From contig OZ024740.1 of the NCBI GenBank assembly GCA_964016885.1, positions 197,284,001-197,348,000 on the forward strand: 64,000 nucleotides of DNA, given 5' to 3'. The stretch is from Eledone cirrhosa. Its lineage: Eukaryota. The position numbers were made by a program, and so were the translations under genes. Each line of letters opens with the position of its first letter. Positions within the stretch are counted from its first letter, which is position 1. Below the pieces are notes generated by a model, which ran no database searches, was not told the DNA's origin, and saw nothing but the letters and a program-made list of their open reading frames with translations. Of this stretch, positions 21,314 to 64,000 are shown in pieces.

Positions 21314-22270
21314 ACTAGACATGAAAAATGCGCAAGCTCAAAAGTGCCACAGAATGTTATAATAAACCTTCAAAAGTGTGGGACTAGAGTTGTTGCTAAA
21401 AAATATTGTAATCATTATATATCGTACATTCTGTTGCATCCTTTATAAAAATAGCTTAAACCAACGAAGCCTTTATTTTTACGCTATTTCACTTAGTTAA
21501 TTCTTAGAGTGTAACATATAAAAATAAATACATCTATGTTTAATGTAATAACAGCTATAAATAATTACGTAATATTATTATCATATACTCATAGTAACAA
21601 AATAATTGTGTTGAAAATTAATATGATGCTTATATGAACGATCAAATCTATAATGATAATTTCTTAAATATACTAATAGTAAAATAATTTAGTTATCTAT
21701 TGTTACATTTTCATAGAACTATAATATTAACAATCGTATTGCATTATCAAATTTTTATCACTACAAACTTTCATATTGGAATTACCTTAAGCCACTTATT
21801 ATTACTTCGCTTTCGTACTTTTACAGCTGTAGATATTGCGCTGTATCTTATATCTAATATCAATATCTCATGGTAATTTGCATGCAGTGTAAAATAGGTT
21901 TATTAATAACTTTAATATGAAATGTATTATACAGGGCTGCGGAGTCGGCTAAAAATTGACTGGCTCCAACTCAGGATCCGATACTCCATTATTTCCTAAA
22001 TTTCAGCTCCGCAGCTCTGTTATTATATTAATTAATTTATTTTATAGTTGTAAATCATATTTTTATATGTTACACTCTAAGAATTAACTAAGTGAAATAG
22101 CGTAAAAATAAAGGCTTCGTTGGTTTAAGCTATCTTTATAAAGGATGCCACAGAATGTACGATATATAATGATTACAATATTTTTTAGCAACAACTCTAG
22201 TCCCACACTTTTGAAGGTTTATTATAACATTCTGTGGCACTTTTGAGCTTGCGCATTTTTCATGTCTAGT
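21314..22270. mobile_element. Element with near-perfect terminal inverted repeats of about 213 bp
   Basis: 21314-21526 is the reverse complement of 22058-22270; termini ACTAG..CTAGT; no clear TSD. Confidence 0.8.
21932..22019. mobile_element. hAT-type MITE nested in the spacer
   Basis: TIRs CAGGGCTGCGGAG / CTCCGCAGCTCTG; 8-bp TSD gtattata/ttattata (7 of 8 match). Confidence 0.65.
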
Positions 22271-22337
22271 ATATATGTGTGTGGGTGTGTATATATTAGT
22301 TTATATATATGTGTGTGTGTATATATATATACATACA

Positions 22338-27817: not shown

Positions 27818-27851
<34 letters not shown>
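27671..27851. repeat. (TA)n/(CA)n compound microsatellite, apparent target of the Penelope complex
   Basis: The same tatacacaaacacacacacaca motif resumes at 37843-37880. Confidence 0.85.
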
Positions 27852-27854
<3 letters not shown>

Positions 27855-28004
27855 CAGTATTTTCCGTTGTGTTGTAATATAAATATTACACACAGTAGAT
27901 TATCAGCTCACGTAGAGTTTGCTCGACGGTTCCAGTTGTAGTTCCAAAAGTAATCCGGAGAAAAATAGAAAGATTTGAATGGATACAGTTTAGTTGAAAG
28001 GAAT

Positions 28005-28121
28005 TTATTGACACGTGTTTCTATAACAGTTACATAACCTAAAACAGCTATCTACAAACTTTTAGTTATGCAGACATTCAATATTTCAATGTTATTATTT
28101 ACTGTCATTTCATCAGAATAA
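28005..28121 (-). ncRNA. Hammerhead motif in the PLE pLTR (copy A)
   Basis: Reverse complement of 37686-37802. Confidence 0.65.
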
Positions 28122-28665
28122 TATTACTGAGGACCTGTTTAGTTTTTATAGAGAATATTAGGAGGGAGGGGTGAAGTTGTTAGAAGAATAGTTGAAGGAG
28201 TGGTTTTTCGATAGCAGTGAGAATTCTTGGTGGCAGTGAGTAATTAGATTCCCATCTGTTGTTTTGACATTTTTTATAGAATATATTATTGGTTATTTTT
28301 CTAAATCTATAGAAGGATTAGAGATAGTAAAGATATGCGTGGTTGGTTTTGTGTTTGCACTTAATTAACATTCAGACTTAAATTTTTCTTTCAAGTGTAC
28401 GTATCCTTTCACCCACGCATTCACACACAAATATATTTGCACACCTCTACAAAATACATATACTCACAATTCACATATTCATACTTACATATATATACAC
28501 ATGCATGTATTCATGTACATACATACGCGCTCATGTGTATACGTTTTCATACTCAACTTATCTTTATATACACACGTATAGACACACACATATATACATA
28601 CATACTCTAGTCCATGTGTACACACATACACATACTTACACATCCATATACTCATATATACATAC

Positions 28666-28697
<32 letters not shown>

Positions 28698-29019
28698 ATA
28701 TATACATACACATACATATACACACATATACATATATATATATATATATAAGCACTTTAATACATGAATACACTTACATCTAACTATACACATCAAACAT
28801 ATATATATATTTACTTATTTATATACATTTTCACATATATATACATACTTATGGACGTTTTTAGACACATTCATTATCGCATATTTGTACCTATTCTCAT
28901 CAGCATATCTTTTCATTATTAGTATGGTAATTTAAGGTTATTAATATATGTTGAGAAGAGATTGTTTTTATATTTTTCTAACTAGATTAAGGTTTATATA
29001 GTTGGGGGATGTCCCTCTT

Positions 29020-31342
29020 TTATGTAATATTCGGCTTGTAGTGGGAAAAAAGGGTTTTAGTTCTGTGACGGCAGAATAATGTTCGTTCAATTCTGTTATT
29101 CAGCAGTTTCTTCTTGTGTGTGATTATGTAATAAATCTCAAGATTACACAATTTGCAGAAATTTTGGCTCCTGGAAAAGCTTTGGGTTTTAGCTAATTTT
29201 TCCCATTTTAGGGTAAACTTTTGGTCGCTATCCCTGAGCGTCCAAGCTTTTTCTGCTAAAGTTGTTACATTTCTTTGGCTCTGGTGTTTTATTGAGTAAG
29301 AATGCCTATACAATCGAGATTTAAACGATGTTGCCGTTGATCCCACGTAATACCACTCGTTGCCTCCGGATTTAATGGTACACTTATAAATAATATTTTT
29401 TTCCAGGCAGTTATTGCCGAGGGGGCAGTTGTCAGGATAGGTGCAGTTACAGTTGTGTACGTTGGGTTTTCTCTGGAGTAGTATTGCGGACGAACTTAGG
29501 TGTGGTTTATTTATGTTCTGTAGTGTAGTGTCTACTGTTTTTTTTTGTGTTCTTTGTACTTAAGTTCTTAGTGTTTTCGTTTAACCTTCTAGTATTGATC
29601 TTTTTTATGTGTTGTTCAAGGTTTAACGCTGTAGAGTATGACAGTCTTATAGTGGTAGGGTTTAGGATTTTGTGGTATTTGTGTGATGTGGGAAAATGTC
29701 TTTTAATTATTTTAAAGAAGAGTACTGGTAAATTTGTACTAATGGAGCTATTGTATTCGGGGTTATACCATAAGTACTCTTTGCATCGCTTTCTATTAGT
29801 TTTGTTTGTTGGTTTACTGGTGTGCATACTATGGTAGTAAGTGTGGTTTGGTGTTGTGTTATTATATCTACCTATGTGGGATTTATTTTGGGTGTTTTGA
29901 TTGTTCCCATCTATGTACTCTATTTTGTTGAGGTAGCCTGCTTTACTAAGGGCGTTATCGTAGTACTCGGCGTGTTCCTTAAATACTTGTATGTTAGAAG
30001 ATAGACCCGAGATTCTAAGGGAAATATTTTTAGGGATAGATTTAATTATAGAGATGGGGTGGTTAGACCCAACATTTACGTATTTGAGATTTTCGTTCAA
30101 TTTATGAAACGGTTTAATCAAACCAGAGTTTAAATTGAGTGTGACATCCAGGAAGTTAACTACTTTAAGGTTGTATTCATATGTTATAGTTAGTCCTATT
30201 TCGAGTAGTAGTTTTCTTATATCTTTGCGTAGTTTTTCTAGTTTTTGGTTATTAAGGTTTTTAGCTAGGAGGAGAACATCGTCGCGGTATATTCCGCCGT
30301 GGAGATTGCTGAATTTTTCCTGGAGTCTAAAGGCGATAAATAACCCCACAATATCAGTTATTTCCGCCGAATCGTTAGAGCCCATTGTTATGTCAAAGTT
30401 AGAGGGTCTATCTTTACGTACCCAATAACTGTTCTCAAATTTGACTATAGTTTTCCTAGCTTCTAATATAATCTTAATTTCATCGTTTGTAAGGTCAGAG
30501 TTATCCTTAGCAAACTTAATGGCTCTATTCAAAGTTTCAGGTGATATCGATGAGTAATATTCATCGATATCAAACTGGATAAACTTAGATTTATTCTTAT
30601 TGCTAATGCTATTAAACCATCTTATTGCTTCTTGGGTCTTCCCCCAGAGTTTAATGTTAACCTTAGCCTTAATTTGGGGGATGATTCTATCTAAGATATA
30701 TTTGCTTATTTTACCTATATCTGATTTAGAGGGGCAGATTAATCTAATTTTAGGGTCATTATCAAAGTTTACCTTGTGGTCCTTAAGATTGAAGGTGGGT
30801 ACCGCCGGTAAGAGTGGTCCTGTCCTATCTTCGATTCCGAGATTTTTCACTATTTCGCATGCCTCATCATTGATGTGCTTAAGGGTTACTTCACTCGTTT
30901 TTCTATATTTTTTATGTAATTCTTTTCGAATGAAGTTGTTGTATGTAGTGCAATCCATAGTGTACAGGTTTGATGTTTTGTCCGCTTTTACTACAATTCC
31001 TTTGGTGTTTTTAAGGTCGTCCGGTAGTTTTTTTATATCTTTCTGTAATTTGCTGTTGGTGTTGCGTCCTTTGAATTTAATTTTAAGGATTAAGTTCATA
31101 AGGTCCTGCTCAAATGCATCTAATAGTGGGTTGGTGGGTGGGTTTTTACAAGTCCTAAAACCGAATTTGTTGTTTACACCACTTTCTAATGTTGAGTTCA
31201 TACGGCTTCTATCATAGTGGAGCGTTTTCCACCTGACACGTCGAATGAATTCATTAGTTTTTTGAATCATGCTCAATAAATATTCCTTTCTACCTTGGGT
31301 TGGTATGTTTTTGAGTGACATATCCAGGTAGTGTTTTTCCAT
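29020..31342 (-). pseudogene. PLE RT-endonuclease ORF with a 1-nt frameshift in an A9 run
   Basis: 611-aa and 108-aa ORFs; copy B has A8 and reads through. Confidence 0.85.
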
Positions 31343-31393
31343 TGTTGTGGTTGCGTTTGCTGTGTGGGTTGCTCGACTTTACAGGAGGTAAAT

Positions 31394-32207
31394 ATACAGT
31401 ATTTTCCGTTGTGTTGTAATATAAATATTACACACATTAGATTATCAGCTCACGTAGAGTTTGCTCGACGGTTCCAGTTGTAGTTCCAAAAGTAATCCGG
31501 AGAAAAATAGAAAGATTTGAATGGATACAGTTTAGTTGAAAGGAATTTATTGACACGTGTTTCTATAACAGTTACATAACCTAAAACAGCTATCTACAAA
31601 CTTTTAGTTATGCAGACATTCAATATTTCAATGTTATTATTTACTGTCATTTCATCAGAATAATATTACTGAGGACCTGTTTAGTTTTTATAGAGAATAT
31701 TAGGAGGGAGGGGTGAAGTTGTTAGAAGAATAGTTGAAGGAGTGGTTTTTCGATAGCAGTGAGAATTCTTGGTGGCAGTGAGTAATTAGATTCCCATCTG
31801 TTGTTTTGACATTTTTTATAGAATATATTATTGGTTATTTTTCTAAATCTATAGAAGGATTAGAGATAGTAAAGATATGCGTGGTTGGTTTTGTGTTTGC
31901 ACTTAATTAACATTCAGACTTAAATTTTTCTTTCAAGTGTACGTATCCTTTCACCCACGCATTCACACACAAATATATTTGCACACCTCTACAAAATACA
32001 TATACTCACAATTCACATATTCATACTTACATATATATACACATGCATGTATTCATGTACATACATACGCGCTCATGTGTATACGTTTTCATACTCAACT
32101 TATCTTTATATACACACGTATAGACACACACATATATACATACATACTCTAGTCCATGTGTACACACATACACATACTTACACATCCATATACTCATATA
32201 TACATAC

Positions 32208-32239
<32 letters not shown>

Positions 32240-33912
32240 ATATATACATACACATACATATACACACATATACATATATATATATATATATAAGCACTTT
32301 AATACATGAATACACTTACATCTAACTATACACATCAAACATATATATATATTTACTTATTTATATACATTTTCACATATATATACATACTTATGGACGT
32401 TTTTAGACACATTCATTATCGCATATTTGTACCTATTCTCATCAGCATATCTTTTCATTATTAGTATGGTAATTTAAGGTTATTAATATATGTTGAGAAG
32501 AGATTGTTTTTATATTTTTCTAACTAGATTAAGGTTTATATAGTTGGGGGATGTCCCTCTTTTATGTAATATTCGGCTTGTAGTGGGAAAAAAGGGTTTT
32601 AGTTCTGTGACGGCAGAATAATGTTCGTTCAATTCTGTTATTCAGCAGTTTCTTCTTGTGTGTGATTATGTAATAAATCTCAAGATTACACAATTTGCAG
32701 AAATTTTGGCTCCTGGAAAAGCTTTGGGTTTTAGCTAATTTTTCCCATTTTAGGGTAAACTTTTGGTCGCTATCCCTGAGCGTCCAAGCTTTTTCTGCTA
32801 AAGTTGTTACATTTCTTTGGCTCTGGTGTTTTATTGAGTAAGAATGCCTATACAATCGAGATTTAAACGATGTTGCCGTTGATCCCACGTAATACCACTC
32901 GTTGCCTCCGGATTTAATGGTACACTTATAAATAATATTTTTTTCCAGGCAGTTATTGCCGAGGGGGCAGTTGTCAGGATAGGTGCAGTTACAGTTGTGT
33001 ACGTTGGGTTTTCTCTGGAGTAGTATTGCGGACGAACTTAGGTGTGGTTTATTTATGTTCGGTAGTGTATTGTCTACTGTTTTTTTTGTGTTCTTTGTAC
33101 TTAAGTTCTTAGTGTTTTCGTTTAACCTTCTAGTATTGATCTTTTTTATGTGTTGTTCAAGGTTTAACGCTGTAGAGTATGACAGTCTTATAGTGGTAGG
33201 GTTTAGGATTTTGTGGTATTTGTGTGATGTGGGAAAATGTCTTTTAATTATTTTAAAGAAGAGTACTGGTAAATTTGTACTAATGGAGCTATTGTATTCG
33301 GGGTTATACCATAAGTACTCTTTGCATCGCTTTCTATTAGTTTTGTTTGTTGGTTTACTGGTGTGCATACTATGGTAGTAAGTGTGGTTTGGTGTTGTGT
33401 TATTATATCTACCTATGTGGGATTTATTTTGGGTGTTTTGATTGTTCCCATCTATGTACTCTATTTTGTTGAGGTAGCCTGCTTTACTAAGGGCGTTATC
33501 GTAGTACTCGGCGTGTTCCTTAAATACTTGTATGTTAGAAGATAGACCCGAGATTCTAAGGGAAATATTTTTAGGGATAGATTTAATTATAGAGATGGGG
33601 TGGTTAGACCCAACATTTACGTATTTGAGATTTTCGTTCAATTTATGAAACGGTTTAATCAAACCAGAGTTTAAATTGAGTGTGACATCCAGGAAGTTAA
33701 CTACTTTAAGGTTGTATTCATATGTTATAGTTAGTCCTATTTCGAGTAGTAGTTTTCTTATATCTTTGCGTAGTTTTTCTAGTTTTTGGTTATTAAGGTT
33801 TTTAGCTAGGAGGAGAACATCGTCGCGGTATATTCCGCCGTGGAGATTGCTGAATTTTTCCTGGAGTCTAAAGGCGATAAATAACCCCACAATATCAGTT
33901 ATTTCCGCCGAA
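31394..33912 (-). mobile_element. Penelope-like element copy B, tandem with A and 5'-truncated within RT
   Basis: 442-aa ORF at 32562-33890 with RT C-terminus and GIY-YIG in frame; hammerhead motif at 31547-31663. Confidence 0.95.
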
Positions 33913-33931
33913 GGTATCCATTCCGCCGAAG

Positions 33932-34228
33932 GTATCCATTCAAATCTTTCTATTTTTCTCCGGATTACTTTTGGAACTACAACTGGAACCGTCGAGCAAA
34001 CTCTACGTGAGCTGATAATCTACTGTGTGTAATATTTATATTACAACACAACGGAAAATACTGTATATTTACCTCCTGTAAAGTCGAGCAACCCACACAG
34101 CAAACGCAACCACAACAATGGAAAAACACTACCTGGATATGTCACTAAAAAACATACCAACCCAAGGTAGAAAGGAATATTTATTGAGCATGATTCAAAA
34201 AACTAATGAATTCATTCGACGTGTCAGA
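33932..34228 (+). mobile_element. Short PLE fragment D (pLTR plus ORF start)
   Basis: Matches 34283-34578 and ends at cgtgtcag. Confidence 0.9.
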
Positions 34229-37107
34229 AGGTTATGTAACTGTTATAGAAACACGTGTCAATAAATTCCTTTCAACTAAACTGTATCCATTCAAATCTTT
34301 CTATTTTTCTCCGGATTACTTTTGGAACTACAACTGGAACCGTCGAGCAAACTCTACGTGAGCTGATAATCTAATGTGTGTAATATTTATATTACAACAC
34401 AACGGAAAATACTGTATATTTACCTCCTGTAAAGTCGAGCAACCCACACAGCAAACGCAACCACAACAATGGAAAAACACTACCTGGATATGTCACTCAA
34501 AAACATACCAACCCAAGGTAGAAAGGAATATTTATTGAGCATGATTCAAAAAACTAATGAATTCATTCGACGTGTCAGGTGGAAAACGCTCCACTATGAT
34601 AGAAGCCGTATGAACTCAACATTAGAAAGTGGTGTAAACAACAAATTCGGTTTTAGGACTTGTAAAAACCCACCCACCAACCCACTATTAGATGCATTTG
34701 AGCAGGACCTTATGAACTTAATCCTTAAAATTAAATTCAAAGGACGCAACACCAACAGCAAATTACAGAAAGATATAAAAAAACTACTGGACGACCTTAA
34801 AAACACCAAAGGAATTGTAGTAAAAGCGGACAAAACATCAAACCTGTACACTATGGATTGCACTACATACAACAACTTCATTCGAAAAGAATTACATAAA
34901 AAATATAGAAAAACGAGTGAAGTAACCCTTAAGCACATCAATGATGAGGCATGCGAAATAGTGAAAAATCTCGGAATCGAAGATAGGACAGGACCACTCT
35001 TACCGGCGGTACCCACCTTCAATCTTAAGGACCACAAGGTAAACTTTGATAATGACCCTAAAATTAGATTAATCTGCCCCTCTAAATCAGATATAGGTAA
35101 AATAAGCAAATATATCTTAGATAGAATCATCCCCCAAATTAAGGCTAAGGTTAACATTAAACTCTGGGGGAAGACCCAAGAAGCAATAAGATGGTTTAAT
35201 AGCATTAGCAATAAGAATAAATCTAAGTTTATCCAGTTTGATATCGATGAATATTACTCATCGATATCACCTGAAACTTTGAATAGAGCCATTAAGTTTG
35301 CTAAGGATAACTCTGACCTTACAAACGATGAAATTAAGATTATATTAGAAGCTAGGAAAACTATAGTCAAATTTGAGAACAGTTATTGGGTACGTAAAGA
35401 TAGACCCTCTAACTTTGACATAACAATGGGCTCTAACGATTCGGCGGAAATAACTGATATTGTGGGGTTATTTATCGCCTTTAGACTCCAGGAAAAATTC
35501 AGCAATCTCCACGGCGGAATATACCGCGACGATGTTCTCCTCCTAGCTAAAAACCTTAATAACCAAAAACTAGAAAAACTACGCAAAGATATAAGAAAAC
35601 TACTACTCGAAATAGGACTAACTATAACATATGAATACAACCTTAAAGTAGTTAACTTCCTGGATGTCACACTCAATTTAAACTCTGGTTTGATTAAACC
35701 GTTTCATAAATTGAACGAAAATCTCAAATACGTAAATGTTGGGTCTAACCACCCCATCTCTATAATTAAATCTATCCCTAAAAATATTTCCCTTAGAATC
35801 TCGGGTCTATCTTCTAACATACAAGTATTTAAGGAACACGCCGAGTACTACGATAACGCCCTTAGTAAAGCAGGCTACCTCAACAAAATAGAGTACATAG
35901 ATGGGAACAATCAAAACACCCAAAATAAATCCCACATAGGTAGATATAATAACACAACACCAAACCACACTTACTACCATAGTATGCACACCAGTAAACC
36001 AACAAACAAAACTAATAGAAAGCGATGCAAAGAGTACTTATGGTATAACCCCGAATACAATAGCTCCATTAGTACAAATTTACCAGTACTCTTCTTTAAA
36101 ATAATTAAAAGACATTTTCCCACATCACACAAATACCACAAAATCCTAAACCCTACCACTATAAGACTGTCATACTCTACAGCGTTAAACCTTGAACAAC
36201 ACATAAAAAAGATCAATACTAGAAGGTTAAACGAAAACACTAAGAACTTAAGTACAAAGAACACAAAAAAAAACAGTAGACAATACACTACAGAACATAA
36301 ATAAACCACACCTAAGTTCGTCCGCAATACTACTCCAGAGAAAACCCAACGTACACAACTGTAACTGCACCTATCCTGACAACTGCCCCCTCGGCAATAA
36401 CTGCCTGGAAAAAAATATTATTTATAAGTGTACCATTAAATCCGGAGGCAACGAGTGGTATTACGTGGGATCAACGGCAACATCGTTTAAATCTCGATTG
36501 TATAGGCATTCTTACTCAATAAAACACCAGAGCCAAAGAAATGTAACAACTTTAGCAGAAAAAGCTTGGACGCTCAGGGATAGCGACCAAAAGTTTACCC
36601 TAAAATGGGAAAAATTAGCTAAAACCCAAAGCTTTTCCAGGAGCCAAAATTTCTGCAAATTGTGTAATCTTGAGATTTATTACATAATCACACACAAGAA
36701 GAAACTGCTGAATAACAGAATTGAACGAACATTATTCTGCCGTCACAGAACTAAAACCCTTTTTTCCCACTACAAGCCGAATATTACATAAAAGAGGAAC
36801 ATCCCCCAACTATATAAACCTTAATCTAGTTAGAAAAATATAAAAACAATCTCTTCTCAACATATATTAATAACCTTAAATTACCATACTAATAATGAAA
36901 AGATATGCTGATGAGAATAGGTACAAATATGCGATAATGAATGTGTCTAAAAACGTCCATAAGTATGTATATATATGTGAAAATGTATATAAATAAGTAA
37001 ATATATATATATGTTTGATGTGTATAGTTAGATGTAAGTGTATTCATGTATTAAAGTGCTTATATATATATATATATGTATATGTGTGTATATGTATGTG
37101 TATGTAT

Positions 37108-37141
<34 letters not shown>

Positions 37142-37842
37142 GTATGTATATATGAGTATATGGATGTGTAAGTATGTGTATGTGTGTACACATGGACTAG
37201 AGTATGTATGTATATATGTGTGTGTCTATACGTGTGTATATAAAGATAAGTTGAGTATGAAAACGTATACACATGAGCGCGTATGTATGTACATGAATAC
37301 ATGCATGTGTATATATATGTAAGTATGAATATGTGAATTGTGAGTATATGTATTTTGTAGAGGTGTGCAAATATATTTGTGTGTGAATGCGTGGGTGAAA
37401 GGATACGTACACTTGAAAGAAAAATTTAAGTCTGAATGTTAATTAAGTGCAAACACAAAACCAACCACGCATATCTTTACTATCTCTAATCCTTCTATAG
37501 ATTTAGAAAAATAACCAATAATATATTCTATAAAAAATGTCAAAACAACAGATGGGAATCTAATTACTCACTGCCACCAAGAATTCTCACTGCTATCGAA
37601 AAACCACTCCTTCAACTATTCTTCTAACAACTTCACCCCTCCCTCCTAATATTCTCTATAAAAACTAAACAGGTCCTCAGTAATATTATTCTGATGAAAT
37701 GACAGTAAATAATAACATTGAAATATTGAATGTCTGCATAACTAAAAGTTTGTAGATAGCTGTTTTAGGTTATGTAACTGTTATAGAAACACGTGTCAAT
37801 AAATTCCTTTCAACTAAACTGTATCCATTCAAATCTTTCTAT
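34229..37842 (+). mobile_element. Penelope-like element copy C, inverted relative to A and B
   Basis: ORFs 34469-36304 and 36465-36791 are nearly identical to copy A, with the same A9 frameshift. Confidence 0.95.
37686..37802 (+). ncRNA. Type I hammerhead motif with an 88-nt stem II insert
   Basis: TTATT-CTGATGA-(aATGACAGT..ACTGTTATa)-GAAA-CACGTG-TC-AATAA. Confidence 0.68.
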
Positions 37843-49868: not shown

Positions 49869-50825
49869 TCAGCTAACAGTGATACAGCTTCTCTTCATGA
49901 TATGATTTTTTTCATGTTTAGTTAAGCCAATTCTTTCAGAGAATGATTTACCACATATATCACAATGATATGGTTTCTCTCTTGTATGAACACGTTTGTG
50001 TTTAGTTAGGTCACTATTTTGAGAGAATGTTTTACCACAAATATCACAGTTATGTGGTTTCTCTCCTGTGTGAATATATTTGTGAATAGTTAAATGACTT
50101 GTTTGAGAGAATGATCTATCACATATATCACACTGATAAGGCTTCTCTCCTGTATGAATATACTTGTGTGTAGTTAAGTGACCTGTTTGAGAGAAAGCTA
50201 TACCACAGATATCACAGCGATAGGGTTTCTCCCCTGTATGGATGCGATGATGTTTTGTTAGGTGACTTTTATTAGAGAATGATTTACCACAGATATCACA
50301 GTGAAATGGTTTCTCTCCTGTATGAATGCGTTTGTGAGTAGTTACGTCACAACTCCGAAAAAAAAGTTTACCACATATTTCACAAGGATATGACTTCTCT
50401 TCAGTATGAATACGTTTGTGAGCAGTTAAGACATCACTCCGAGAGAATGATTTACCACAGATATCACAGTTATATGGCTTCTCTCCAGTATGAATACGTT
50501 TGTGAACACTTAATGCCTTATTTCGAGAGAATGATTTACCACAGATATCACAGTGATAAGACTTATCTCTTGTATGAATACATTTGTGTTTAGTTAAGGC
50601 ATCTCTTGCAAAGAATGATTTACCACAAATATCACAATTATATGGCTCCTCTCTTGTATGAATGAGTTTGTGAGCAGTTAAAACATTATTTCGAGAGAAT
50701 GATTTGCCACAGATATCACAGTGATGTGATGTTTTTTGTTTCTTTTCTATTATTTTGCCAGGTAAATCAATCCCTTGGGATTGTGTTGCACATTTAACTG
50801 GGTTCTCACATAATTCATTTTCCAT
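49869..50825 (-). CDS. C2H2 zinc-finger protein with 10 fingers (ZNF-B)
   Basis: 318-aa ORF with ten canonical fingers; same N- and C-termini as ZNF-A; acceptor at 50971-50972. Confidence 0.93.
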   Translation of the reverse strand: MENELCENPVKCATQSQGIDLPGKIIEKKQKTSHHCDICGKSFSRNNVLTAHKLIHTREEPYNCDICGKSFFARDALTKHKCIHTRDKSYHCDICGKSFSRNKALSVHKRIHTGEKPYNCDICGKSFSRSDVLTAHKRIHTEEKSYPCEICGKLFFRSCDVTTHKRIHTGEKPFHCDICGKSFSNKSHLTKHHRIHTGEKPYRCDICGIAFSQTGHLTTHKYIHTGEKPYQCDICDRSFSQTSHLTIHKYIHTGEKPHNCDICGKTFSQNSDLTKHKRVHTREKPYHCDICGKSFSERIGLTKHEKNHIMKRSCITVS

Positions 50826-51659
50826 AATTTTTCTTTTTTATCACAATATATATATTTCTCTTTTTTATATATTTTATTCCTAACAAATATTTCTACTGTT
50901 GAATTTCCATAAACATTAATGATGAATCTCAGGTAAAGAATATTCTGTAAAGTCAACATCATCTGATATTCTGAAAAATAGAGAAACAGTATAAGATATA
51001 GAGGATACTTAAAGAATAAAAAAGTTAAGTGAAAATTTGGCTACATTTCTGTAATGGTAGCATGTAGATATAACATTTAACATGAAGATTTAAAGTTTAA
51101 TTTTTAATTTATCAAAATAACATAATACAACACTGTGTGAAGTCTTACAAACTAGAGCAACACCTTCAGATTGTGTAGCAGAATATATATGTTAAACTAC
51201 AGCTACACCTTCAGATTATGTAATATATGTTATACTACAGCTACTTCATCATGAAATTCTGCTACACAAATGAAAATCAAATGAAATTTACAGCTCACAC
51301 CTAATGCAAGTTTATTGGCATCCTATGAAGGTTTCTTCAATGTTTTAATAAGGCTCTTACAGCCCTGACTGAGCAAACCTATCATGAATGAAGAAAAGAC
51401 TGAATGGGAACAATCCCATTAACCAAACCTAGCTTAAGTGAATAATAAAGGTTGAATTAGTATAAAGTTGACAGTGGTCTTGATTGACATTACTTTTTAT
51501 GGACTTCAGTTGAAATATCTCAGGAAAATATTACAATTTTGAGAAATTGTCTCCAAAGTTTATATTTGAAAATTGGTAAAATGGAAATAAATTAATACAA
51601 AATTAGTTGAAGAGAATTAAATATGAGAGAATCACAAGGTATAGAACGTGTTAGGTAGA

Positions 51660-53605: not shown

Positions 53606-53646
<41 letters not shown>

Positions 53647-53652
<6 letters not shown>

Positions 53653-54102
53653 ATTAAATAAATGGAAAACTATATTTATAAAACCATATTTATTTCATTA
53701 TATATATTTCGGGGATATCATATTAACAATATGCTATGCCTTCATCAGACAAAATACAATATAAACAGTTTTATAGATAAATATATTCGACATACCGTAA
53801 TAAACATCAACTTCATTTGAAGAGGTTTACTCTAGCAGTGAAAATACTTTCTCTCTTTTCTTTCTCTTTTTCTTTCTTTCTTTCTCTCTTTCTTTCTCTC
53901 TGTATTTTCACTGCTAGAGTAAACCTCTTCAAATGAAGTTGATGTTTATTACGGTATGTCGAATATATTTATCTATAAAACTGTTTATATTGTATTTTGT
54001 CTGATGAAGGCATAGCATATTGTTAATATGATATCCCCGAAATATATATAATGAAATAAATATGGTTTTATAAATATAGTTTTCCATTTATTTAATATTG
54101 TA
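53647..54102. repeat. Apparently perfect 201-bp inverted repeat with a 54-bp pyrimidine spacer
   Basis: 53647-53847 is the reverse complement of 53902-54102. Confidence 0.92.
53994..54057 (+). ncRNA. Type I hammerhead motif (mirror copy on the minus strand at 53692-53755)
   Basis: ATTTTGT-CTGATGA-stem II-GAAA-TATATA-TA-ATGAAAT. Confidence 0.65.
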
Positions 54103-54186
54103 AATATACTCCAAATATTTGTCGAGTGCTTTTATATCAGTTATAAATATTTACTAGTTGTAACCCAACAATTTTAAATATAACTT

Positions 54187-54651: not shown

Positions 54652-54655
<4 letters not shown>

Positions 54656-56070
54656 ACGGAATATTATGTGTGTTTGTAACGATAAGTAGATGGATGGATA
54701 TAACTGTTGGTATGGTGGTTTCGATGTAAAGAAAAATACCAGGTTTGTGTTGTTACAATATTCAATTTGAATATTGAATGATAAAATCAATAACACAAAA
54801 GGCATAGGTTAATTATAACGTTCGAGAAAGTGAAAGTCATTTTTCTGACAAGTGAATGTTTTTTTTGTTTTTTTTACATTGAAATTTACGATACAGTTTG
54901 TTTATTTACAACAGGTCTCTATAGTGATATGGTGTTAATTAGTATTGCGTGTGTGATTATTTTCTCTTATATATATATGTGTGGGTGTGTATATGTGTGT
55001 ATAAATATGTGTGTCTGTATGTATATATATATGTGTGTTTGTATATATATGTGTTTGTGTCATCATCATCGTTTAGATGTTTTTGTAATATCTTGCCAAA
55101 ATTGGCACCAACTATAAACAAATTAAGGCCGGGTCATAAGAAGGACAGAGAATGATAAGGGATTTGGGTAAAAACATCTAAACGATGATGATGACACAAA
55201 CACACATATATATATACAAACACACATATATATATACATACAGACACATATATATACACATACAGACACACATATATATACACACATATACACACCCACA
55301 CATATATATATAAGAGAAAATAATCACACACGCAATACTAATTAACACCATATCACTATAGAGACCTGTTGTAAATAAACAAACTGTATCGTAAATTTCA
55401 ATGTAAAAAAACAAACAAACACATTCACTTGTCAGAAAATTGACTTTCACTTTCTCGAACGTTATAATTAACCTATGCCAACACAAAAAATTCATACAAT
55501 AATTTGTTGGCTCTTCGAGCCACGTAAATTCAAGTATCACAGAATACGATTATAATATAATTTGTACTGTATCAGAAAGGTACAATATGTGTAAACAGAA
55601 ATGGTGTGTGTATAAATACTGAACTCACTATGAATGCGTGTGTGCGTATCAGTATATTTACTTGTTTGTATTGCAGGAGTCAGCGATCAACCAAGAAGGT
55701 GAGAATAAGTGGCGGACTGGTTTTTCGTGACGAGAGCTTGTAAATGCGACTTGTCTTGTCTGTATATCACTTCTTTTCTGTCGGGGCGTGAACAACCCCT
55801 GTATTTATAAGAGTTGAAGTTAGAAGGATAGATATATCAAACCGATGACATGTGTGAGACGGGATGCCTCACTAACGATCCGGTTCGATGCGAACTGCGC
55901 TTCGATGTGCGCGAACCACAGTGTTGGATCGTGCACCCAGAATGGTGGAATCCTTAATGTAAATGCCGCCCTGACTGCCATTTCTGCCGCTGATGAATCG
56001 TCGTGTGCTAGAGACATCGTTTGTAGTGGATGATCAGAAGGTTGTGTGTCTGTTTTACGGGGTCACCAGT
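54652..56070 (-). mobile_element. Internally deleted Gypsy copy: partial LTR joined to the gag 5' end and PBS
   Basis: LTR sequence 54652-55838 fused at ATC to a gag start identical to 63592-63826. Confidence 0.85.
54801..55479. mobile_element. Mutator-type MITE inserted in the Gypsy LTR
   Basis: TIRs of about 280-310 bp starting GGCATAGG; 9-bp TSD AACACAAAA at 54792-54800 and 55480-55488. Confidence 0.88.
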
Positions 56071-56812
56071 TGTAACGGAATATTATGTGTGTTTGTAACG
56101 ATAAGTGGATGGATGGATGTAACTGTTGGTATGGTGGTTTCGATGTAAAGAAAAATACCAGGATTGTGTTGTTACAAAGTTTATTTTATTATAACAATAT
56201 TCAATTTGAATATTGAATGATAAAATCAATAACACAAAATATTCATACAATAATTTGGTGGCTCTTCGAGCCATGTAAATTCAAGTATCACAGAATACGA
56301 TTATAATATAATTTGTACTGTATCATAAAGGTACAATATGTGTAAACAGAAATGGTGCGTGTATAAATACCGAACTCACTATGAATGCGTGTGTGCGTAT
56401 CAGTATATTTACTTGTTTGTATTGCAAGAGTCAGCGATCAGCCAAGAAGGTGAGAATAAGTGGCGGACTGGTTTTTCGTGACGAGAGCTTGTAAATGCGA
56501 CTTGTCTTGTCTGTATATCACTTCTTTTCTATCGGGGCGTGAGCAACCCCTGTATTTATAAGAATTGAAGTTAGAAGGATAGATATATCCTCTGAACTTT
56601 GGTTAGTCTCTCCCAAGGTATTAGTTTGCCAAGCGTAAACAAGTCAGAAAGATGGATATATCCTCTGACCTATTTTCTGTCAGGCGTAAACACTTCTGAC
56701 CTGTGTTTAGCCTCTCCCAAGGGGTTAATCTCTTAAGCGTAAACAAGTTACCACGGCTTGTCCCAGAGGCGGGAAAGCTCAGATTCGGTTTCGAATCTTC
56801 GCCACCGTTATA
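56071..56812 (-). repeat. Intact Gypsy LTR (742 bp) shared by two tandem elements
   Basis: PBS on its left (56058-56068) and G-rich PPT on its right (56816-56836); termini TATAACGG..CCGTTACA. Confidence 0.9.
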
Positions 56813-57553
56813 GTACCCCCCTCTCCCCCCCCCCCCGTCCAGTGAGAAAGCTAAGATTGAACGATCTAGGTGCATGTGAAATGAAAATAGGTATGAATAG
56901 GTATGTTGTTGAAGAAAATCAGTAAAAATAAAAAAACAAATGAAAGTCATTTACAAACAGGAGAAATGAAAAAACATGCAAAGCAAAAGAATTTTACATG
57001 CAGGAAAATGTACTGTGATGTTACATAAAATTGAAAATGTTCGTACGAAAAGTTTGTTGATTAAAAGTTCGTTCATTTCATAGAAACGGAAAAATGTTCT
57101 TTTGTCTGTTCTTTTGATGTGGGTGATGCACAGAGTTAATTGATTTGTGTGTAACAATAGTTCATGACTACAGAAATTGGCCGATTCGTTGAAATGTACA
57201 AATTAGCCGAAATGTCGACCAGATGCATAATTTGTACTTACCCGATAAACTTATACGTATCGCGTGGGCCATCGGACTGTTCTTCCAGATTTGGTGTGTC
57301 GGGGTTGTGCAGAATTTGTCGTGTTTGTGTCGGGCAAAGTTGTTGGTGAGTCTGCTGGAGAAACGGTGGGTACTGGTGGCAATTCCTGTTCTATGAACGC
57401 TTTTTTTAAACGATCAATGGAGACGGTATTTCGTTTCCCGTTCAAGTCGAGGACGAAAGGGCGTTTCTGTATCACCTTATAGGGCCCGGAATACAGCGGA
57501 CGAAGTTGCGATGGAATACCGTCATTTCTAACGAAAACATGTGTCCATGTATC

Positions 57554-60333
57554 TGTAACGGAATATTATGTGTGTTTGTAACGACAAGTGGATGGATGGA
57601 TGTAACTGTTGGTATGGTGGTATAGCGGAATGCTAGTGTGTATGAATGTAACAAAATAGACATGGTTTGTGTGTATAATATTTAATCAACAATTTAACAG
57701 TATAGTTAACATGTCAATGAATAAACGAAATAATGAAGCAAAGTTAGTAGTTACCGTTTTGATTGCCAGGCAAACGCGGCTGGCAGAAGACGCCTGGCGA
57801 AGGCCAGGCGCCGGAAGGGCAAATGAGAGAGTGAGAACTTAAAGTTGTTAGTTTTATAGGGTTCTGACCGGAAGTTACAGAAAGGGTTCTACTTCCTGTC
57901 TAGATGGTGTTGTGAGTGTCACAACAAGGGAGGCAACTGCTACATAACCCCCTGCCAGAATTTTAGAATATAAAAATCGAATGAAATAGGTAGCAAGTTG
58001 GCGAGAATGTTGTAACAGGTGGTGAAAATTACGACAAAAGAATGTTTGCGAAAATCAATGATAGATATCAAGGTAGCCAACCGCTCTTGGCCAGAGAACG
58101 ACTGGACATCTATCTATCCATCACCCAAAGATACAATGTAACAAAGTAAGAGAAGAGCTCAAACTTCAAATGTACAAAATATAGTTCACAGGTGTGCAAT
58201 CACATGACAGCAGGAAAGAAAGTGTGTTCCAGAGAATGAATGCAGGTGGTTTCTGTTCTGTGGTATATCGTGAAATTTCCAACCTCCGAATGGATTTTCT
58301 CACAGGAAGAGTGCTGCAAAAATAAATTCTCTGGCTTGTTCTGCTGGTTTTGGTTGTTGGTGAAGCTGTGTTGCTGTTGATGTTGTTGTCTCGCGGAGTG
58401 AGCGTATTCGGTGTTTAAATTCACAGTAAAAAAATTTTTTTCAGAATAAATGAGTTGCGCAAAGTGATAGAAATAACAGCCGAAGTTGATGGTCGATGTT
58501 GAGAATGCGTTGACCTGGAATGGTCAAGAGGCCAGCGACCAAATAAATAAGCATTCTGAATAAATGCGCAGTTTTCAACGGCAAATTTACGTGGTAAATT
58601 TTTAAACCGGCAAATAGGAGAATATAGCTTAAGGCTGAAGAATCCTTGGCGAGAAACGTTACTCTGGCGTGCCTATCTCTGTGAGTCGAGATATCTCCGT
58701 GAGTTGAGAATTTGTGCTGCCTACACGTGCCAATACAAGGTTAAGTTAGGTTGAAAAAACAATATTTCTAACGCGCGAGAAAATGATAGTGCAAGTGTGA
58801 AAGTGACAATGATGAAAAAGAAAGGCTTCACTTAGCATAATTATTGGTGTGAACTTTGAAAAAAAAACTTGAACGATGAAGGAAACGATGAAAAAAAAAG
58901 GCAATGGTTCATCGAAAATAAATGTTCCTGTTGAAATGTTTTTTAAAAAAATTATCAAATTTCTTTTTTTTTTTTTTTTTTTTTTTGAAAGTGTTCGTTG
59001 TAGGAAACGAGAAACATATATATATCGTGAAATGCGACAGTTAGTTGATGCGTGAGAGAAAAAGTCTGTCTGAACACGAATTTCACATGTGCGTGGTGTG
59101 TTCGTTTCTTGGAGAAACATATATATATATACAGCAAACTGCGACAGTTAGTGGATGCGTGAGGGAAAAAGAATGTCTGCACGAAAGTTTCACATGTGCG
59201 TGTGTGCGTTTCTTTGACTGAGTATTTTCATAGTTTGTCAATAAATTTGCTGTGTATTCGTAATGTTACTCACACAACACCAGATTCTGCTATTTTTTTC
59301 TTTTTTCGGGGTGACCACTTATAACAATGAACGGCTGCGTGTTCGTATCACGTCAGGGTTACCAATATAGCGGAATGCTAGTGGTGTATGAATGTAACAA
59401 GGAGACATGGTTTGTGTGTATAATATTTAATCAACAATTTAACAGTATAGTTGACATAAGCGAAAGAATGAAGCAAAGTTAGTAGTTACCGTTTTAATTG
59501 CCAGGCAAACGCGGCTGGCAGAAGACGCCTGGCGAAGGCCAGGCGCCGGAAGAGCAAATGAGAGAGTGAGAACTTAAAGTTGTTAGTTGTATAGGGTTCT
59601 GACCGGAAGTTACAGAAAGGGTTCTACTTCCTGTCTAGATGGTGTTGTGAGTGTCACAACAAGGGAGGCAACTGCTACAGTGGTTTCGGTGTAAATAAAA
59701 ATACCAGGAGTGTTGTTACAAAGTTTATTTTATTACAGCAATATTCAATTTGAATATTGAATGATAAAATAATTGACACAAAATATTCATACAATAATTT
59801 GGTGGCTCTTCGAGCCACGTAAATTCAAATATCACAGAATACGATTATAATATGTGTAAAACAGAAATGAATGGTGCGTGTACAAATGTTGGACTCACTA
59901 TGAATTGCGTGTGTTCGGCGTATCAGTATATTTACTTATTTGTATTGCAGGAGTCAGCGATCAGCCAGGAAGGTGAGAATAAGTGGTAGACTTGTTTTTC
60001 GTGACGAGAGCTTGTAAATGAGACTCGTATTGTCTGTATCCACTGCTTTTCTGTTTTAGGCGTAAACAATCCCTCTATTTATAAGAGTTGAAGTAAGAAG
60101 GATAGATATATCCTCTGAACTTTGGTTAGTCTCCCAAGGGATTAGTTTGCCAAGCGTAAACAAGTCAGAAAGATGGATATATCCTCTGACCTATTTTCTG
60201 TCAGGCGTAAACACCTCTGACCTGTGTTTAGCTTCTCCCAAGGGGTTAGTCTCTTGAGCGTAAACAAGTTACCACGGCTTGTCCCAGAGGCGGGAAAACT
60301 CAGATTCGGTTTCGAATCTTCGCCGCCGTTATA
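57554..60333 (-). mobile_element. Solo LTR of the same Gypsy family inserted in the integrase 3' region
   Basis: 4-bp TSD TATC at 57550-57553 and 60334-60337; removal restores PKDID-TWTHVFVRND..YSGPY. Confidence 0.9.
57621..59679 (-). mobile_element. Non-autonomous LTR retrotransposon (TRIM/LARD-like), LTRs at 57621-57944 and 59366-59679
   Basis: TSD GTGG; PBS TGGTAACCCTGACGTGAT; PPT GGCAGGGGG; no recognisable coding sequence inside. Confidence 0.9.
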
Positions 60334-63160
60334 TATCGATGTCTTTTGGTATGTGTGAAGTAACGTGCTGTTGTTTAGGGGCTGAAGGAGACAGATGCGA
60401 CATCGATGACCGTAAACGGTGCACATATTTTGTTGGGTCTGGAAGTTCTTGTGGCGAAACAGGAGCGATCATTTGTCCGGGTAGAGTGAGTACGGTGCCA
60501 TACAACATTTCAGCCGGATCACCCCCGACTCCCTCCTTTACAGTGGAACGAATACCAAGAAGAATGAGTGGGAGGTATTCGAACCAGTTAGTGAAGTCTT
60601 CGTAAGCCTTGATAGATGCTTTTAGCTGGCGGTGGAAGCGTTCTACCATGCCGTTAGCGGCAGGGTGATACGCTGTTGTACGGATGTGTTTGCACCCGAG
60701 GAGACGAGTCAGCTCGGTAAATAGGTGCGAATCGAACTGACGTCCTCTATCCGTAGTGATGGTCGCGGGTGTGCCGAAACGCGAAACCCAGTGAAACACT
60801 AGCGCTTTGGCGACAGTTTCCGCAGAAATATCCGTCAGGGGAAAAGCTTCTGGCCAGCGAGAAAATCGGTCGACACATGTGAGAAGATGAGTGTAGTTGT
60901 GAGAAGGAGGCAAAGGTCCAACGATGTCTATATGCACATGTTGGAACCGTGCATCAGGTGTTGCGAAAGAACCGATCGGGGCTTTGATGTGCCGGTGAAT
61001 TTTCGCCTTCTGGCACGCGATACAGTTCCTAGCCCGTTCGCGGGTGTCCTTGTTGATGTTAGGCCACACAAAGCGGGCAACCATCAGTTTCTGCATGGCG
61101 CGGACGCCAGGATGTGCCAGAGAATGCAGTGCCGAGAAAACGTCGCGTCGATGTTTCCGGGGCACGTATGGGCGCCCGTGGCCTGTGGAGATGTCGCACC
61201 AAATATAACCCGAAGAAGAGGGCAGCTGGCATTCCTTCAATTTCCGGAGTTGCAGCAGTTCCTCGTCATTCTGTTGATCCGCTGCAATCCTCTGGAGGTC
61301 GATAGTGGCAGTGGTGTGGATTGCGTTAAGCTTCATGCGCGATTGGGCATCAGCTGCTGAGTTGGTGGCACCCTTAATGTACCGAATATCAGTAGTGTAC
61401 TGAGAAATGAAGTCCAGATGTCGGACCTCCCTGGGTGAGTGTCGGTCAGGCTTAGCGTTGAACGCGTACACTAGTGGTTTGTGGTCGGTGTATATAGAGA
61501 ACACACGACCTTTTAGCATGTGTCGAAAATGCTTGACAGCAAGGTATGCTGCCAATAATTCACGAGTGAATATGCTGTACTTAGTTTCGGCGGGTTTTAA
61601 TCGCTTAGAGAAAAAAGATACAGGTCGCCAAATATCGCCAGAGAGTTGTTGAAGCACACCTCCAACTCCGAAATCGGATGCATCAGTCAATAAACACATT
61701 GGGGCGTCAGGTTTGGGGTAACTCAGCATTGTAGCCTCGGACAACATTTTCTTCAACTCAGCGAAAGCGGTACATCCTTTTTCGCTGAGATTGATGTTTG
61801 CGTTTTTGGTTGTACGCTGCCGCAGCAAATCTGTGAGTGGTTGGGCTGTCTCTGCACAGTGGGGTATAAATCTTCTGTAGAAGTTTACCAGGCCAAGAAA
61901 TTCTCGCAGTTTGCGGAGAGATGTAGGTTGTGGAAAATCAATGATGGATTTGACTTTCTCCTTAAGTGGGCGAATACTATCTTTGTCAATGATGTGTCCC
62001 AGAAAATGAAGGGACGCAGCTCCGAACTCACATTTGCTGGGGTTGATAACAATTCCGTATTCACGCAAACGTGTGAATAGGAGATCCAGGTGTTTCTCAT
62101 GTTCTTCATCGGAGCTGCTGGCCACCAGTAAGTCGTCAATGTATGCGTATACAAAAGGTAGACCTCTGGTGACTGTATCGATGAATCGCTGGAATGTCTG
62201 CGCTGCATTTCGCAAACCGAAAAGCATACGCAGAAATTCGAACATTCGAAAGGGTGTTGTGACGGCGGTCTTAGGAATATCTGCAGGCTCAACGGGTATC
62301 TGATTGTAAGCTCGCACAAGATCGATCTTCGAAAATATGCGAGCACCGTGTAGCGAGCTAGAGAAGTCCTGTAGATGAGGCACTGGATAAGAGTCAGGAA
62401 CGGTGCAGTTGTTCAGTGCACGGTAGTCGCCACAGATTCGCCAGTCGTTCGACGACTTCTTGGGTACACAGTGTATGGGTGAGGACCAGTTGCTGCTGGG
62501 CGGACGTATGATGCCGAGATCCAGCATGTGCTGAAATTTTTGTTTGACGGACTTCAGCCGGTCTGGTGGTAGCCTTCTAGGTCGTGCAGCGACAGGTGGG
62601 CCGTGTGTTTTTATGTGGTGTGTGACATCATGTTTTACAGGGCAAGCGTTGAATAGTGGTCGAGCTACGTCTGGGTATTTGTTGATGATGTGGTTGTGCC
62701 AAGTTGTTGTCGATCGTGAAATGACTGGACTGACTGTGGCTGTCCTAACGGCTATGCCGCACACAGCGAGACCAGTGGAGTTGTCAACGAGTCGTTGGTT
62801 TTTCAGGTCCACTAGCAGTGAGAAGTGCTGAAGAAAGTCAGCTCCTAAAATAGGGGTCGGCAGCTTAGCCACAACGAATACCCACTGGAAAGTGCGGCGT
62901 AGTCCCAAATTTAGTGTCAGGGACTGTTCTCCGTAGGTCGGAATATGTGAGTGATTCACCGCCTGGAGCCAGGCTGGTGTCTCTCTCCTTTTTCCAGGAA
63001 CGCAGGAAACCGGGATGATGCTGACTTCAGCACCGGTGTGGACCAGGAAACGCGTGTCTGTGACGCGATCCTGAATGAAAAATAGGCGACTTTGGTTATG
63101 AGGGCCAGAAACGTCCGTCGCATTCAGTTTCTGGCTGTGTCGTTTCCCTGATTCGTTTTC
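60334..63160 (-). pseudogene. pol: Gypsy pol (PR-RT-RNase H-IN), CsRn1-like; C-terminus continues at 57251-57553
   Basis: LVHTGA (catalytic D changed to H), DYRALN, YIDD, TDASD, HSLAH..CIAC, TDRGRQF and NGMVERFH. Confidence 0.93.
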
Positions 63161-63773
63161 GAAACAAATGAACAGGGATGGCTGCACTTTTGCGCTCGTC
63201 TCCCGAATCTTTGGTGGTTCCAACACATTTCTGGTTAATCCCGAGATGCGCTCGGAATTCTTGAGCGACCACCAAATCGGCAAGTTCTTCTATGGTGGTG
63301 GACTCCCTGGTGGATGCTAGTACAACTTGTGTGGCAGAAGGCAAACGCTGGAGGAAGTGTTGCTTGAAAATTTCATCCGGGAGTTTATGTTCGCCCAGAA
63401 GCTGCTTCATTCGCCGTAGGAGTTGCGTCGGCTTTTTATCTCCTAATTCCTCCGATATGAGGAGCTGGTGTAAACGCTTCTGCTATGACTCCGACGTCCG
63501 CTTAACTAATGTTCTTTTAAATGTGTCATATGACGCAGAGCCGGGTGGTGCTAAAATGAGGCCTCGAACCTCATTCATAATCTCCGGAGACATCAAACCG
63601 ATGACATGTGTGAGACGGGATGCCTCACTAACGATCCGGTTCGATGCGAACTGCGCTTCGATGTGCGCGAACCACAGTGTTGGATCGTGCACCCAGAATG
63701 GTGGAATCCTTAATGTAAATGCCGCCCTGACTGCCATTTCTGCCGCTGATGAATCGTCGTGTGCTAGAGACAT
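63124..63773 (-). pseudogene. gag: Gypsy gag with a CHCC motif, premature stop and frameshift
   Basis: IPPFW..DP.LWF..EAQF; [18 protein letters not shown]; stop at 63483-63485; slippery GGGAAAC at 63148-63142. Confidence 0.85.
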
Positions 63774-63813
63774 CGTTTGTAGTGGATGATCAGAAGGTTG
63801 TGTGTCTGTTTTA

Positions 63814-63824
63814 CGGGGTCACCA
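63814..63824 (-). promoter_or_regulatory. Primer-binding site complementary to tRNA-Trp
   Basis: TGGTGACCCCG two bases after the LTR end. Confidence 0.8.
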
Positions 63825-63826
63825 GT

Positions 63827-63879
63827 TGTAACGGAATATTATGTGTGTTTGTAACGATAAGTGGATGGATGGATGTAAC
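63827..63879 (-). repeat. Gypsy 5' LTR (U5 end), interrupted at 63880
   Basis: Identical to 56071-56123. Confidence 0.9.
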
Positions 63880-64000
63880 TGTAGCGGTTGTCTCCCTTGT
63901 TTGGATTAACATCTAGACGGGAAGTAGAACCCTTTCTGTAACTTCCGGTCAGAACCCTATAAAACTAACAACTTTAAGTTCTCACCCTCTCATTGCCCTC
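63880..64000 (+). mobile_element. Second copy of the non-autonomous LTR element, opposite orientation, running off the window
   Basis: TGTAGCGGTTG.CTCCCTTGTT..ACATCTAGAC.GGAAGTAGAACCC is the reverse complement of about 57815-57944. Confidence 0.88.

Follow-up and report, generated by a model that had tools for sequence, protein, structure and literature searches.

A gene-less long terminal repeat element nested twice in a Gypsy family of Eledone cirrhosa, and its likely helper

Why should a non-coding retrotransposon lie twice at almost the same place in the terminal repeat of another element? The question arises in a 64,000-nucleotide stretch of the Eledone cirrhosa genome (assembly GCA_964016885.1, contig OZ024740.1, positions 197,284,001 to 197,348,000), hereafter the window, which corresponds to G000:C1:197284001-197348000 of the 3.0-Gb genome. 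Here an element with long terminal repeats (LTRs) and no genes, which we call S, interrupts two LTRs of a Gypsy family, H, close to their U5 ends. An earlier note on this DNA had proposed that S borrows the machinery of H, preferentially enters its U5 and may thereby disable its own helper. The evidence below points instead to a second Gypsy family, A. A probably packages, copies and integrates S, whose two copies would have come to lie in H because H loci are crowded and the U5 stretch holds some of the top-matching targets.

The two insertions, resolved by blastn, are as the earlier note described them. S copy 1 is a 2,059-bp element 67 nt from the U5 end of an H LTR, with the target-site duplication (TSD) GTGG. 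S copy 2 lies 53 nt from the same end of another H LTR in the opposite orientation; it runs 2,098 nt beyond the window, and reading past position 64000, as the note had advised, shows that it ends at 66098 (extended coordinates continue the numbering of the window) with its own TSD, TAAC. The LTRs of the two copies are about 77% alike and their internal parts 86-93%, so they represent separate insertion events. The LTR pair of copy 1 differs by 8 substitutions and one 10-nt indel across 314 aligned nt, that of copy 2 by 1 substitution in 355, and that of the H host by 18 in 742; copy 2 is clearly younger than the H host (p=0.011). Both S sites fall within U5, the poly(A) signal of H being 120 nt away from the LTR end.

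S possesses a primer-binding site (PBS), which pairs with the genome's own tRNA-Trp, and a polypurine tract (PPT), and it lacks a conserved open reading frame. The longest ATG frames, 124 aa in copy 1 and 74 aa in copy 2, are not common to both; the 124-aa frame has no Pfam match, and a tblastx comparison of S with the coding regions of A and H gave none. With no capacity to code for gag or pol, S is best seen as a non-autonomous element, primed by tRNA-Trp, whose movement depends on help in trans. LTR ends of S or A type give 1,922 genome pattern matches, compared with 1 for a control pattern, a count that takes in A-type ends and solo LTRs and misses ends with a C at one flank position. The first 100 matches collapse to 74 events, which corresponds to 1,424-1,898 S/A insertions genome-wide, and most of the flanks inspected are unrelated DNA with individual 4-bp TSDs. 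S LTRs measure 314-355 bp, many occur as solo LTRs, and a tandem L3I2 form is present at locus L103. At another locus (L043:1538-2325), two S-type LTRs stand head to head in a TA tract, and the palindromic spacer that joins them contains 51 nt of the H LTR hairpin region.

Family A was found through pairs of these S- or A-type ends 5.2-5.5 kb apart. It encodes gag and a full pol (a 1,051-aa frame, 54% identical to H pol) and has about 60 copies at a gag identity of at least 85% among 150 scored gag matches, A-like relatives under about 85% not being counted as A. S resembles A at its U3 end (77-81% over 62 nt), around the PPT and in the 3' untranslated region (UTR; 88-95% over about 400 nt), and S copy 2 is 91-95% identical to the A copy in L342 over about 630 nt of 3' UTR. 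A full H copy, by comparison, has no blastn match to S at E<=1e-3. The similar termini noted earlier for S (TGTAG...CTATA) and H (TATAA...TTACA) are alike only crosswise, the end of S resembling the start of H and the start of S the end of H, whereas A has TGTAG...CTAAA. The tRNA-Trp PBS and 4-bp TSD are indeed present in both S and H, but these traits, like the CHCC gag motif, belong to the whole CsRn1 clade (PMC2582038) and so cannot single out H as the helper.

Chimeric integrants also connect S with A. One of the 30 best gag loci (L135/L146; L146:1427-7293, G000:C3:288173926-288179792) combines the 5' LTR and PBS of S with the gag-pol and 3' LTR of A, has the TSD GGTT on both sides, and switches from S to A at the second PBS motif of S; its two unlike LTRs would require an exchange on the plus strand or at the level of cDNA, not the minus-strand switch that is usual. 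At L105/106, two identical S LTRs enclose 2,966 nt that are 94% identical to A pol, and at L102 a whole S is joined to an A 3' end under a single TSD, GAAG. S is also nested in A copies at four loci (L112, L329, L330 and L331) and within S at one. Recombination between co-packaged retrotransposon RNAs is reviewed in PMC6894440, and the S/A mosaics would be best read as products of exchange when copies of S and of A are made in the same particle. The A-type U3 end, PPT and 3' UTR of S, together with chimeras under single TSDs, make A the likely helper, so that trans mobilisation by A is suggested by common cis sequence and by the chimeras themselves. This comparison does not support H as the helper. 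The earlier note had taken an autonomous element with the LTRs of S as grounds for abandoning H; A is largely such an element, although truly the same LTRs occur only in the chimeric copies and the A LTR body differs. Separately, the S/A chimera that lies in an H LTR (L105:7835, L106:3204) is flanked by a 23-bp duplication instead of 4 bp.

The priming region of S has a feature of its own. In this subfamily, it comprises 32 nt of tRNA-Trp complement, of which 28 match; a mismatch faces the adenine of the T-loop. This extended PBS is followed by a relic U5 end and by the second PBS, the one in use in older S subfamilies. The 1-methyladenosine at tRNA position 58 (m1A58) normally stops reverse transcriptase. 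The extended PBS is likely the trace of a single plus-strand read-through across the methylated A58 and of a new LTR having been grafted onto an older element. Stretches of 30-38 nt of tRNA-Trp complement stand beside LTR ends both in S (59309-59364) and in other LTR copies (L317, L318, L319, L322 and L323), suggesting repeated read-through into the primer tRNA. The genes used for PBS pairing are real tRNA-Trp genes at L345 (G000:C4:353.39-353.49 Mb), where some 40 tRNA-Trp(CCA)-like matches are arrayed 0.7-2.2 kb apart and two of them are confirmed as genes. The first 12 tRNA-like pattern matches were rejected as tRNA genes, since they yielded 0 tRNAs and all are PBS copies of LTR elements.

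If A moves S, the position of S in the U5 of H still calls for an explanation. An exhaustive genome pattern for an S end 30-90 nt inside an H LTR gave three matches, two in the window and one on C3 at position 49. Positions 3-80 were inspected in every H LTR whose U5 anchor is intact, 171 in total. Three carry S at positions 20-80 and 168 do not; 23 of the anchors lie on C20 and C27 and are largely copies of one duplicated segment. The rearranged H copy in question recurs on G000:C20:3.5-5.3 Mb and C27:13.1-15.4 Mb (L234, L240 and L241; also L225, L226, L233, L236 and L249), at 110-130-kb spacing on C20, which describes a large tandem segmental duplication common to both chromosomes. U5 insertions amount to about 0.2% of all S/A insertions. 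They nonetheless exceed the uniform-genome expectation of 0.006 about 500-fold (175-fold without the window).

Local target sequence probably accounts for the positions. S/A integration follows a symmetric motif, WWR-NNNN-YWW, learnt from 56 S/A flanks of which none is in an H LTR, and the symmetry holds on 31 independent flanks. The motif ranks the sites at 49, 67 and 53 as 1, 4 and 38 of 728 LTR positions (bootstrap medians 1, 6 and 44), scores positions 20-80 at 2.4 times the rest of the LTR (5-95%: 1.2-4.5) and places three other S/A sites in H at the 99.8, 98.6 and 86th percentiles. The rest-of-H rate multiplied by the motif predicts 0.46-0.91 U5 matches, and 1 is seen outside the window. 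The U5 positions are thus likely explained by local sequence, as an ordinary good landing site in a crowded neighbourhood.

To describe that neighbourhood, 126 H loci outside the window were inspected (1.07 Mb, about 140 of the 171 anchors). The counts leave out the 4 window anchors, L087 (which has no H past the anchor), 19 of the 23 C20/C27 anchors, 4 truncated LTRs, and L103, L110 and L209, which were obtained apart from the 126 loci; five S/A-H fusions without a matching TSD (L152, L178, L187, L188 and L250) enter only as ambiguous. Clean S/A insertions number 2 in the LTR past position 80 (at about 190, with the 23-bp duplication, and about 560, TSD GATA), 3 in the H body (one in gag and two in the 3' UTR) and 13 in 792 kb of flank. 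Relative to a genome mean of about 0.6 insertions per Mb, these rates are about 39-78-fold for the LTR, 29-59-fold for the body and 29-fold for the flank, or about 30-70-fold in or beside H overall. S is found in H far more often than a uniform genome predicts, but a preference for U5 is not supported: only one of its three occupied LTRs lies outside the window, and bodies and flanks are about as enriched. Two more nests were met from the other side: an H LTR that carries S at about 125 (L107) and an H pol interrupted by a full A (L327, TSD CGTT).

Of 126 H loci, 11 have S/A in the LTR or no more than 1.5 kb from it, compared with 0 of 58 control loci (p=0.018); the controls are a young long interspersed nuclear element (LINE) and a third LTR family, 29 loci of each being left once query loci were dropped, and these 3-kb loci are partly filled by the control element. 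An H anchor stands no more than 10 kb away from 5 of 106 A-like gag matches on C1-C4 (0.1 expected) and no more than 12 kb away from 4 of the 22 best S sites (0.02 expected), and S/A events cluster with each other more weakly (3 gaps under 12 kb, 0.47 expected). The C1-C8 sample shows about 40-fold enrichment, the C8-C28 sample about 6-fold, from 1 flank event. H also hosts the third LTR family and LINEs, at 2 loci each. The third family is 4.2 kb long with LTRs of about 250 bp and about 1,200 candidates, is found in H pol at L158:9788 to L159:3990 and at L328:596-4626, and has no tblastn match to A pol. Zinc-finger gene clusters were rejected as a common feature of H loci, with at least 3 C2H2 motifs at only 3 of 85 loci. 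Either the S/A and H families would share receptive chromatin or an integrated element would seed a hot spot.

In the mechanism that we propose, S, having kept its LTRs, tRNA-Trp PBS, PPT and A-type 3' UTR and U3 end without a coding region, would ride as RNA in A particles and use the reverse transcriptase and integrase of A, as single integrants combining S and A parts suggest. S/A insertions follow the symmetric motif, by which the three U5 sites score high, and they are 30-70 times denser in and within a few kb of H than on average, perhaps because these related families favour the same local chromatin. Several observations weigh against this account. The LTR bodies of S and A are unlike beyond the first 60-100 nt, and the S 5' UTR has no match in A, so that a packaging signal is not located. 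At L152:3728-6002, a tandem S followed by a PBS stub is fused by microhomology to H LTR pieces that run out to the H U5 end, and TATA stands on either side; it could be a deletion or an S/H recombinant, although the flanks are TA-rich. The motif derives from 56 flanks and a symmetric model only, and the site in L158 is not cleanly scorable. With both window copies included, the three U5 matches have P=0.011-0.065, the window pair being the reason the finding was picked. Finally, five of the six clean LTR insertions fall in the 200 nt nearest the U5 end (49, 53, 67, about 125 and about 190; the sixth is at about 560), and a small extra pull toward the U5 side could also be at work.

These points bear on the alternatives to different degrees. 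The model in which S uses H proteins and is steered to the U5 of H, disabling it, draws on three independent insertions within 18 nt in LTR coordinates, on the primer and TSD length common to S and H, on their crosswise-like ends and on L152 as a possible S/H fusion. It is already largely refuted, and we consider it very improbable, because S has no DNA in common with H and forms its chimeras with A, nearly all H LTRs are free of S at this position, and a general motif predicts the U5 sites. The insertions could not have disabled their hosts meaningfully either, one host being a solo LTR and the other an already broken copy with gag stops and an interrupted pol. Improbable as well, if a little less so, is that S entered unintegrated H cDNA and the composite then inserted. 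The nested S copies in L158, L182/L325 and the window (copy 1) do have LTR pairs as diverged as those of the H host or more so, though the host should be older (10/398 vs 5/573 in L182, 12/388 vs 14/743 in L158 and 8/314 vs 18/742 for copy 1). S LTR pairs may, however, differ at birth or mutate faster, and co-integration was rejected as a general cause for S copy 2, which came later than its host, and for the enriched flanks, which it does not explain. An assembly artefact is the hardest of these to believe. Over 291 nt, 55836-56126 and 63592-63882 are 100% identical, against a difference of 2.4% in the H LTR pair; this may reflect later tandem duplication, conversion or an assembly join, and no public contig from four runs bridges the H-S junction (57400-57800), a result that is uninformative for repeats. 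Contig loose ends at 57553 run on into uninterrupted pol, as expected from other H copies. Against an artefact, each insertion is bounded by an exact TSD of its own, the two copies of S are 7-23% different from each other, and similar nests occur on other chromosomes.

A further possibility would add to the role of A rather than replace it, namely that integrated CsRn1-like elements make the hot spot themselves, with a host factor or chromatin at recent H (or A) copies drawing in A-type integration complexes. It is suggested by the excess of S/A at H loci over controls, by the A-like gag matches near H anchors and by flank distances that drop fast (about 40, 50, 300, 350, 350 and 560 nt, then 1.2-4.5 kb). 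In three of the four nests that can be dated, S has also diverged as much as its host, as if it had arrived soon after, and Sap1 sites in fission-yeast Tf LTRs have been proposed as a precedent (PMC5371812). We nevertheless regard this possibility as rather doubtful. In the flank cases S or H may have arrived first, and S copy 2 is clearly younger than its host; the third LTR family and LINEs also enter H, so that H loci are perhaps just receptive places; the enrichment differs between the two chromosome samples; and the 3-kb control loci are partly filled by the control element.

Its likely mobilisation by A places S among known non-autonomous LTR elements. Like TRIMs (miniature terminal-repeat retrotransposons) and large retrotransposon derivatives (LARDs), S has LTRs, a PBS, a PPT and a TSD, no coding region, many solo LTRs and a tandem form, and a partner recognised by common terminal and internal sequence. 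Its LTRs are at the upper edge of the TRIM range of about 100-350 bp, but at 2,059 and 2,219 bp its copies exceed the TRIM size of under 1 kb given in PMC3532108, gene-carrying TRIMs reaching about 1.45 kb according to PMC4717578. It is also far smaller than LARDs, for which PMC3532108 gives LTRs of about 4.4 kb and a central domain of about 3.5 kb. TRIM examples include PbTRIM of the harvester ant (PMC3532108) and plant TRIMs with putative autonomous partners (PMC4717578). Unlike the TRIMs and LARDs compared, S lives in an animal host, its partner is indicated by chimeric integrants, and its LTR body has diverged from that of the partner. S thus fits neither size class: it is a non-autonomous LTR retrotransposon of intermediate size for which a likely partner has been identified.

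H and A show the features tested for the CsRn1 clade (CsRn1, PwRn1, AgCR and Kabuki; PMC2582038, PMC6238403) and appear CsRn1-like by gag motif, PBS, TSD and domain order. The CHCC motif is found in H and in two A copies, and both families have a tRNA-Trp PBS, a 4-bp TSD, the order protease, reverse transcriptase, RNase H and integrase, and a length of about 5.9 kb. The PBS pairs with tRNA-Trp over 11 nt in H, and in A over 10 nt, one extra base and then 8 nt. The H PBS region is bipartite (63790-63825), the 11 nt to the tRNA-Trp 3' end being followed by a spacer and a 10-nt match to the variable-loop side of the tRNA. The TGT...AAA ends of A and TGT...ATA ends of S are as reported for the clade, whereas H begins with TAT. 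The clade is described as common in cephalopods and other molluscs (PMC6238403). A literature search returned no report of a CsRn1-clade satellite, of this S/A pair or of U5 targeting; Repbase and supplements lay outside that search and may catalogue the families.

Other systems resemble parts of the picture. Plant Gypsy elements nest non-randomly in related elements with a weak palindromic target preference (PMC6911290); in that account LTRs are rarely entered and 3' UTRs favoured, while here LTR, body and flanks are hit alike, in an animal genome and by rare families. Co-packaged Ty1 and ONSEN RNAs yield mosaic progeny of autonomous and non-autonomous parents (PMC6894440), from which L146 differs in having two unlike LTRs under one TSD. 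For Tf1/Tf2 and Sap1 in fission yeast, the LTR itself is proposed to seed an insertion hot spot and hence clusters and nests (PMC5371812), a functional analogy only. Fly LTR elements are described as preferring promoters (PMC10018349).

S and A form a well-documented, probable parasite-helper LTR pair in an animal, in which chimeric copies point to the helper, an uncommon arrangement of a known kind, and they correct the idea of a satellite attacking its helper. A broader and more speculative reading, which we put forward with little confidence, is that CsRn1-type integration complexes home on recent elements of their own clade. An LTR element would then seed a hot spot, less than a kilobase wide, for its relatives and their satellite regardless of family, target sequence would pick the base, and co-packaging of S and its helper would be fossilised in integrants with one LTR from each. 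If the clustering is the elements' own doing, LTRs in an animal would be seeding the hot spots that they integrate into, a case so far made mainly for yeast (PMC5371812), and dated nests are numerous enough in this genome to test self-seeding.

The nest that raised these questions spans 54652-66791 in extended coordinates and is bounded by TA tracts on both sides, and everything in it except S copy 2 is on the minus strand. The H element has its 5' LTR at 63827-66791, including the nested S copy 2. The solo LTR that hosts S copy 1 is 88% identical to the flanking H LTR.

Table 1. Features of the nest, in coordinates of the window
Feature	Positions	Strand	Remarks
Truncated tandem H unit	54652..56070	-	235 nt from the 5' internal region match 63592-63826 exactly; a partial LTR follows, interrupted by a palindromic insert of 680 bp (54801-55479)
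H 3' LTR	56071..56812	-	742 bp; 18 substitutions vs 5' LTR
Solo LTR, diverged H subfamily	57554..60333	-	TSD TATC; in H integrase region; S copy 1 at 67 nt from U5 end
S copy 1, non-coding LTR element	57621..59679	-	2,059 bp; TSD GTGG at 57617-57620 and 59680-59683
S copy 1 3' LTR	57621..57944	-	324 bp
S polypurine tract	57945..57957	-	A-type
S 3' UTR segments common to family A	58124..58632	-	88-95% in two blocks
S extended PBS	59333..59364	-	28/32 nt complementary to tRNA-Trp 3' end; then relic U5 end and second PBS-like motif (about 59309-59319)
S copy 1 5' LTR	59366..59679	-	314 bp
H pol	60334..63289	-	Protease, reverse transcriptase, RNase H, integrase; 986-aa frame; split by solo LTR, end at about 57251-57553
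H gag	63096..63818	-	DUF7041, CHCC motif; in-frame stops break frame
H PBS	63815..63825	-	11 nt complementary to tRNA-Trp
H 5' LTR, U5 end	63827..63879	-	53 nt; remainder 66099-66791 (extended)
S copy 2, start	63880..64000	+	2,219 bp in all, to 66098 (extended); TSD TAAC; LTR pair 99.7% identical

Elsewhere in the window, large near-perfect inverted repeats of flanking DNA occur at 54801-55479, 53641-54108, 9709-10664 and 21311-22273, with arms of 200-290 nt and short spacers, one of them within an H LTR. A 10-kb block at 27847-37842 contains nested inverted repeats (2,959-nt arms, 99%) and frames of 623 aa and 485 aa with skewed composition and no Pfam match. The nest itself lies in a zinc-finger gene cluster: C2H2 zinc-finger arrays at 267-923 and 49869-50837, about 49 kb apart, are 91% alike, and the 84-bp zinc-finger period recurs beyond the window at about 75035-75858.

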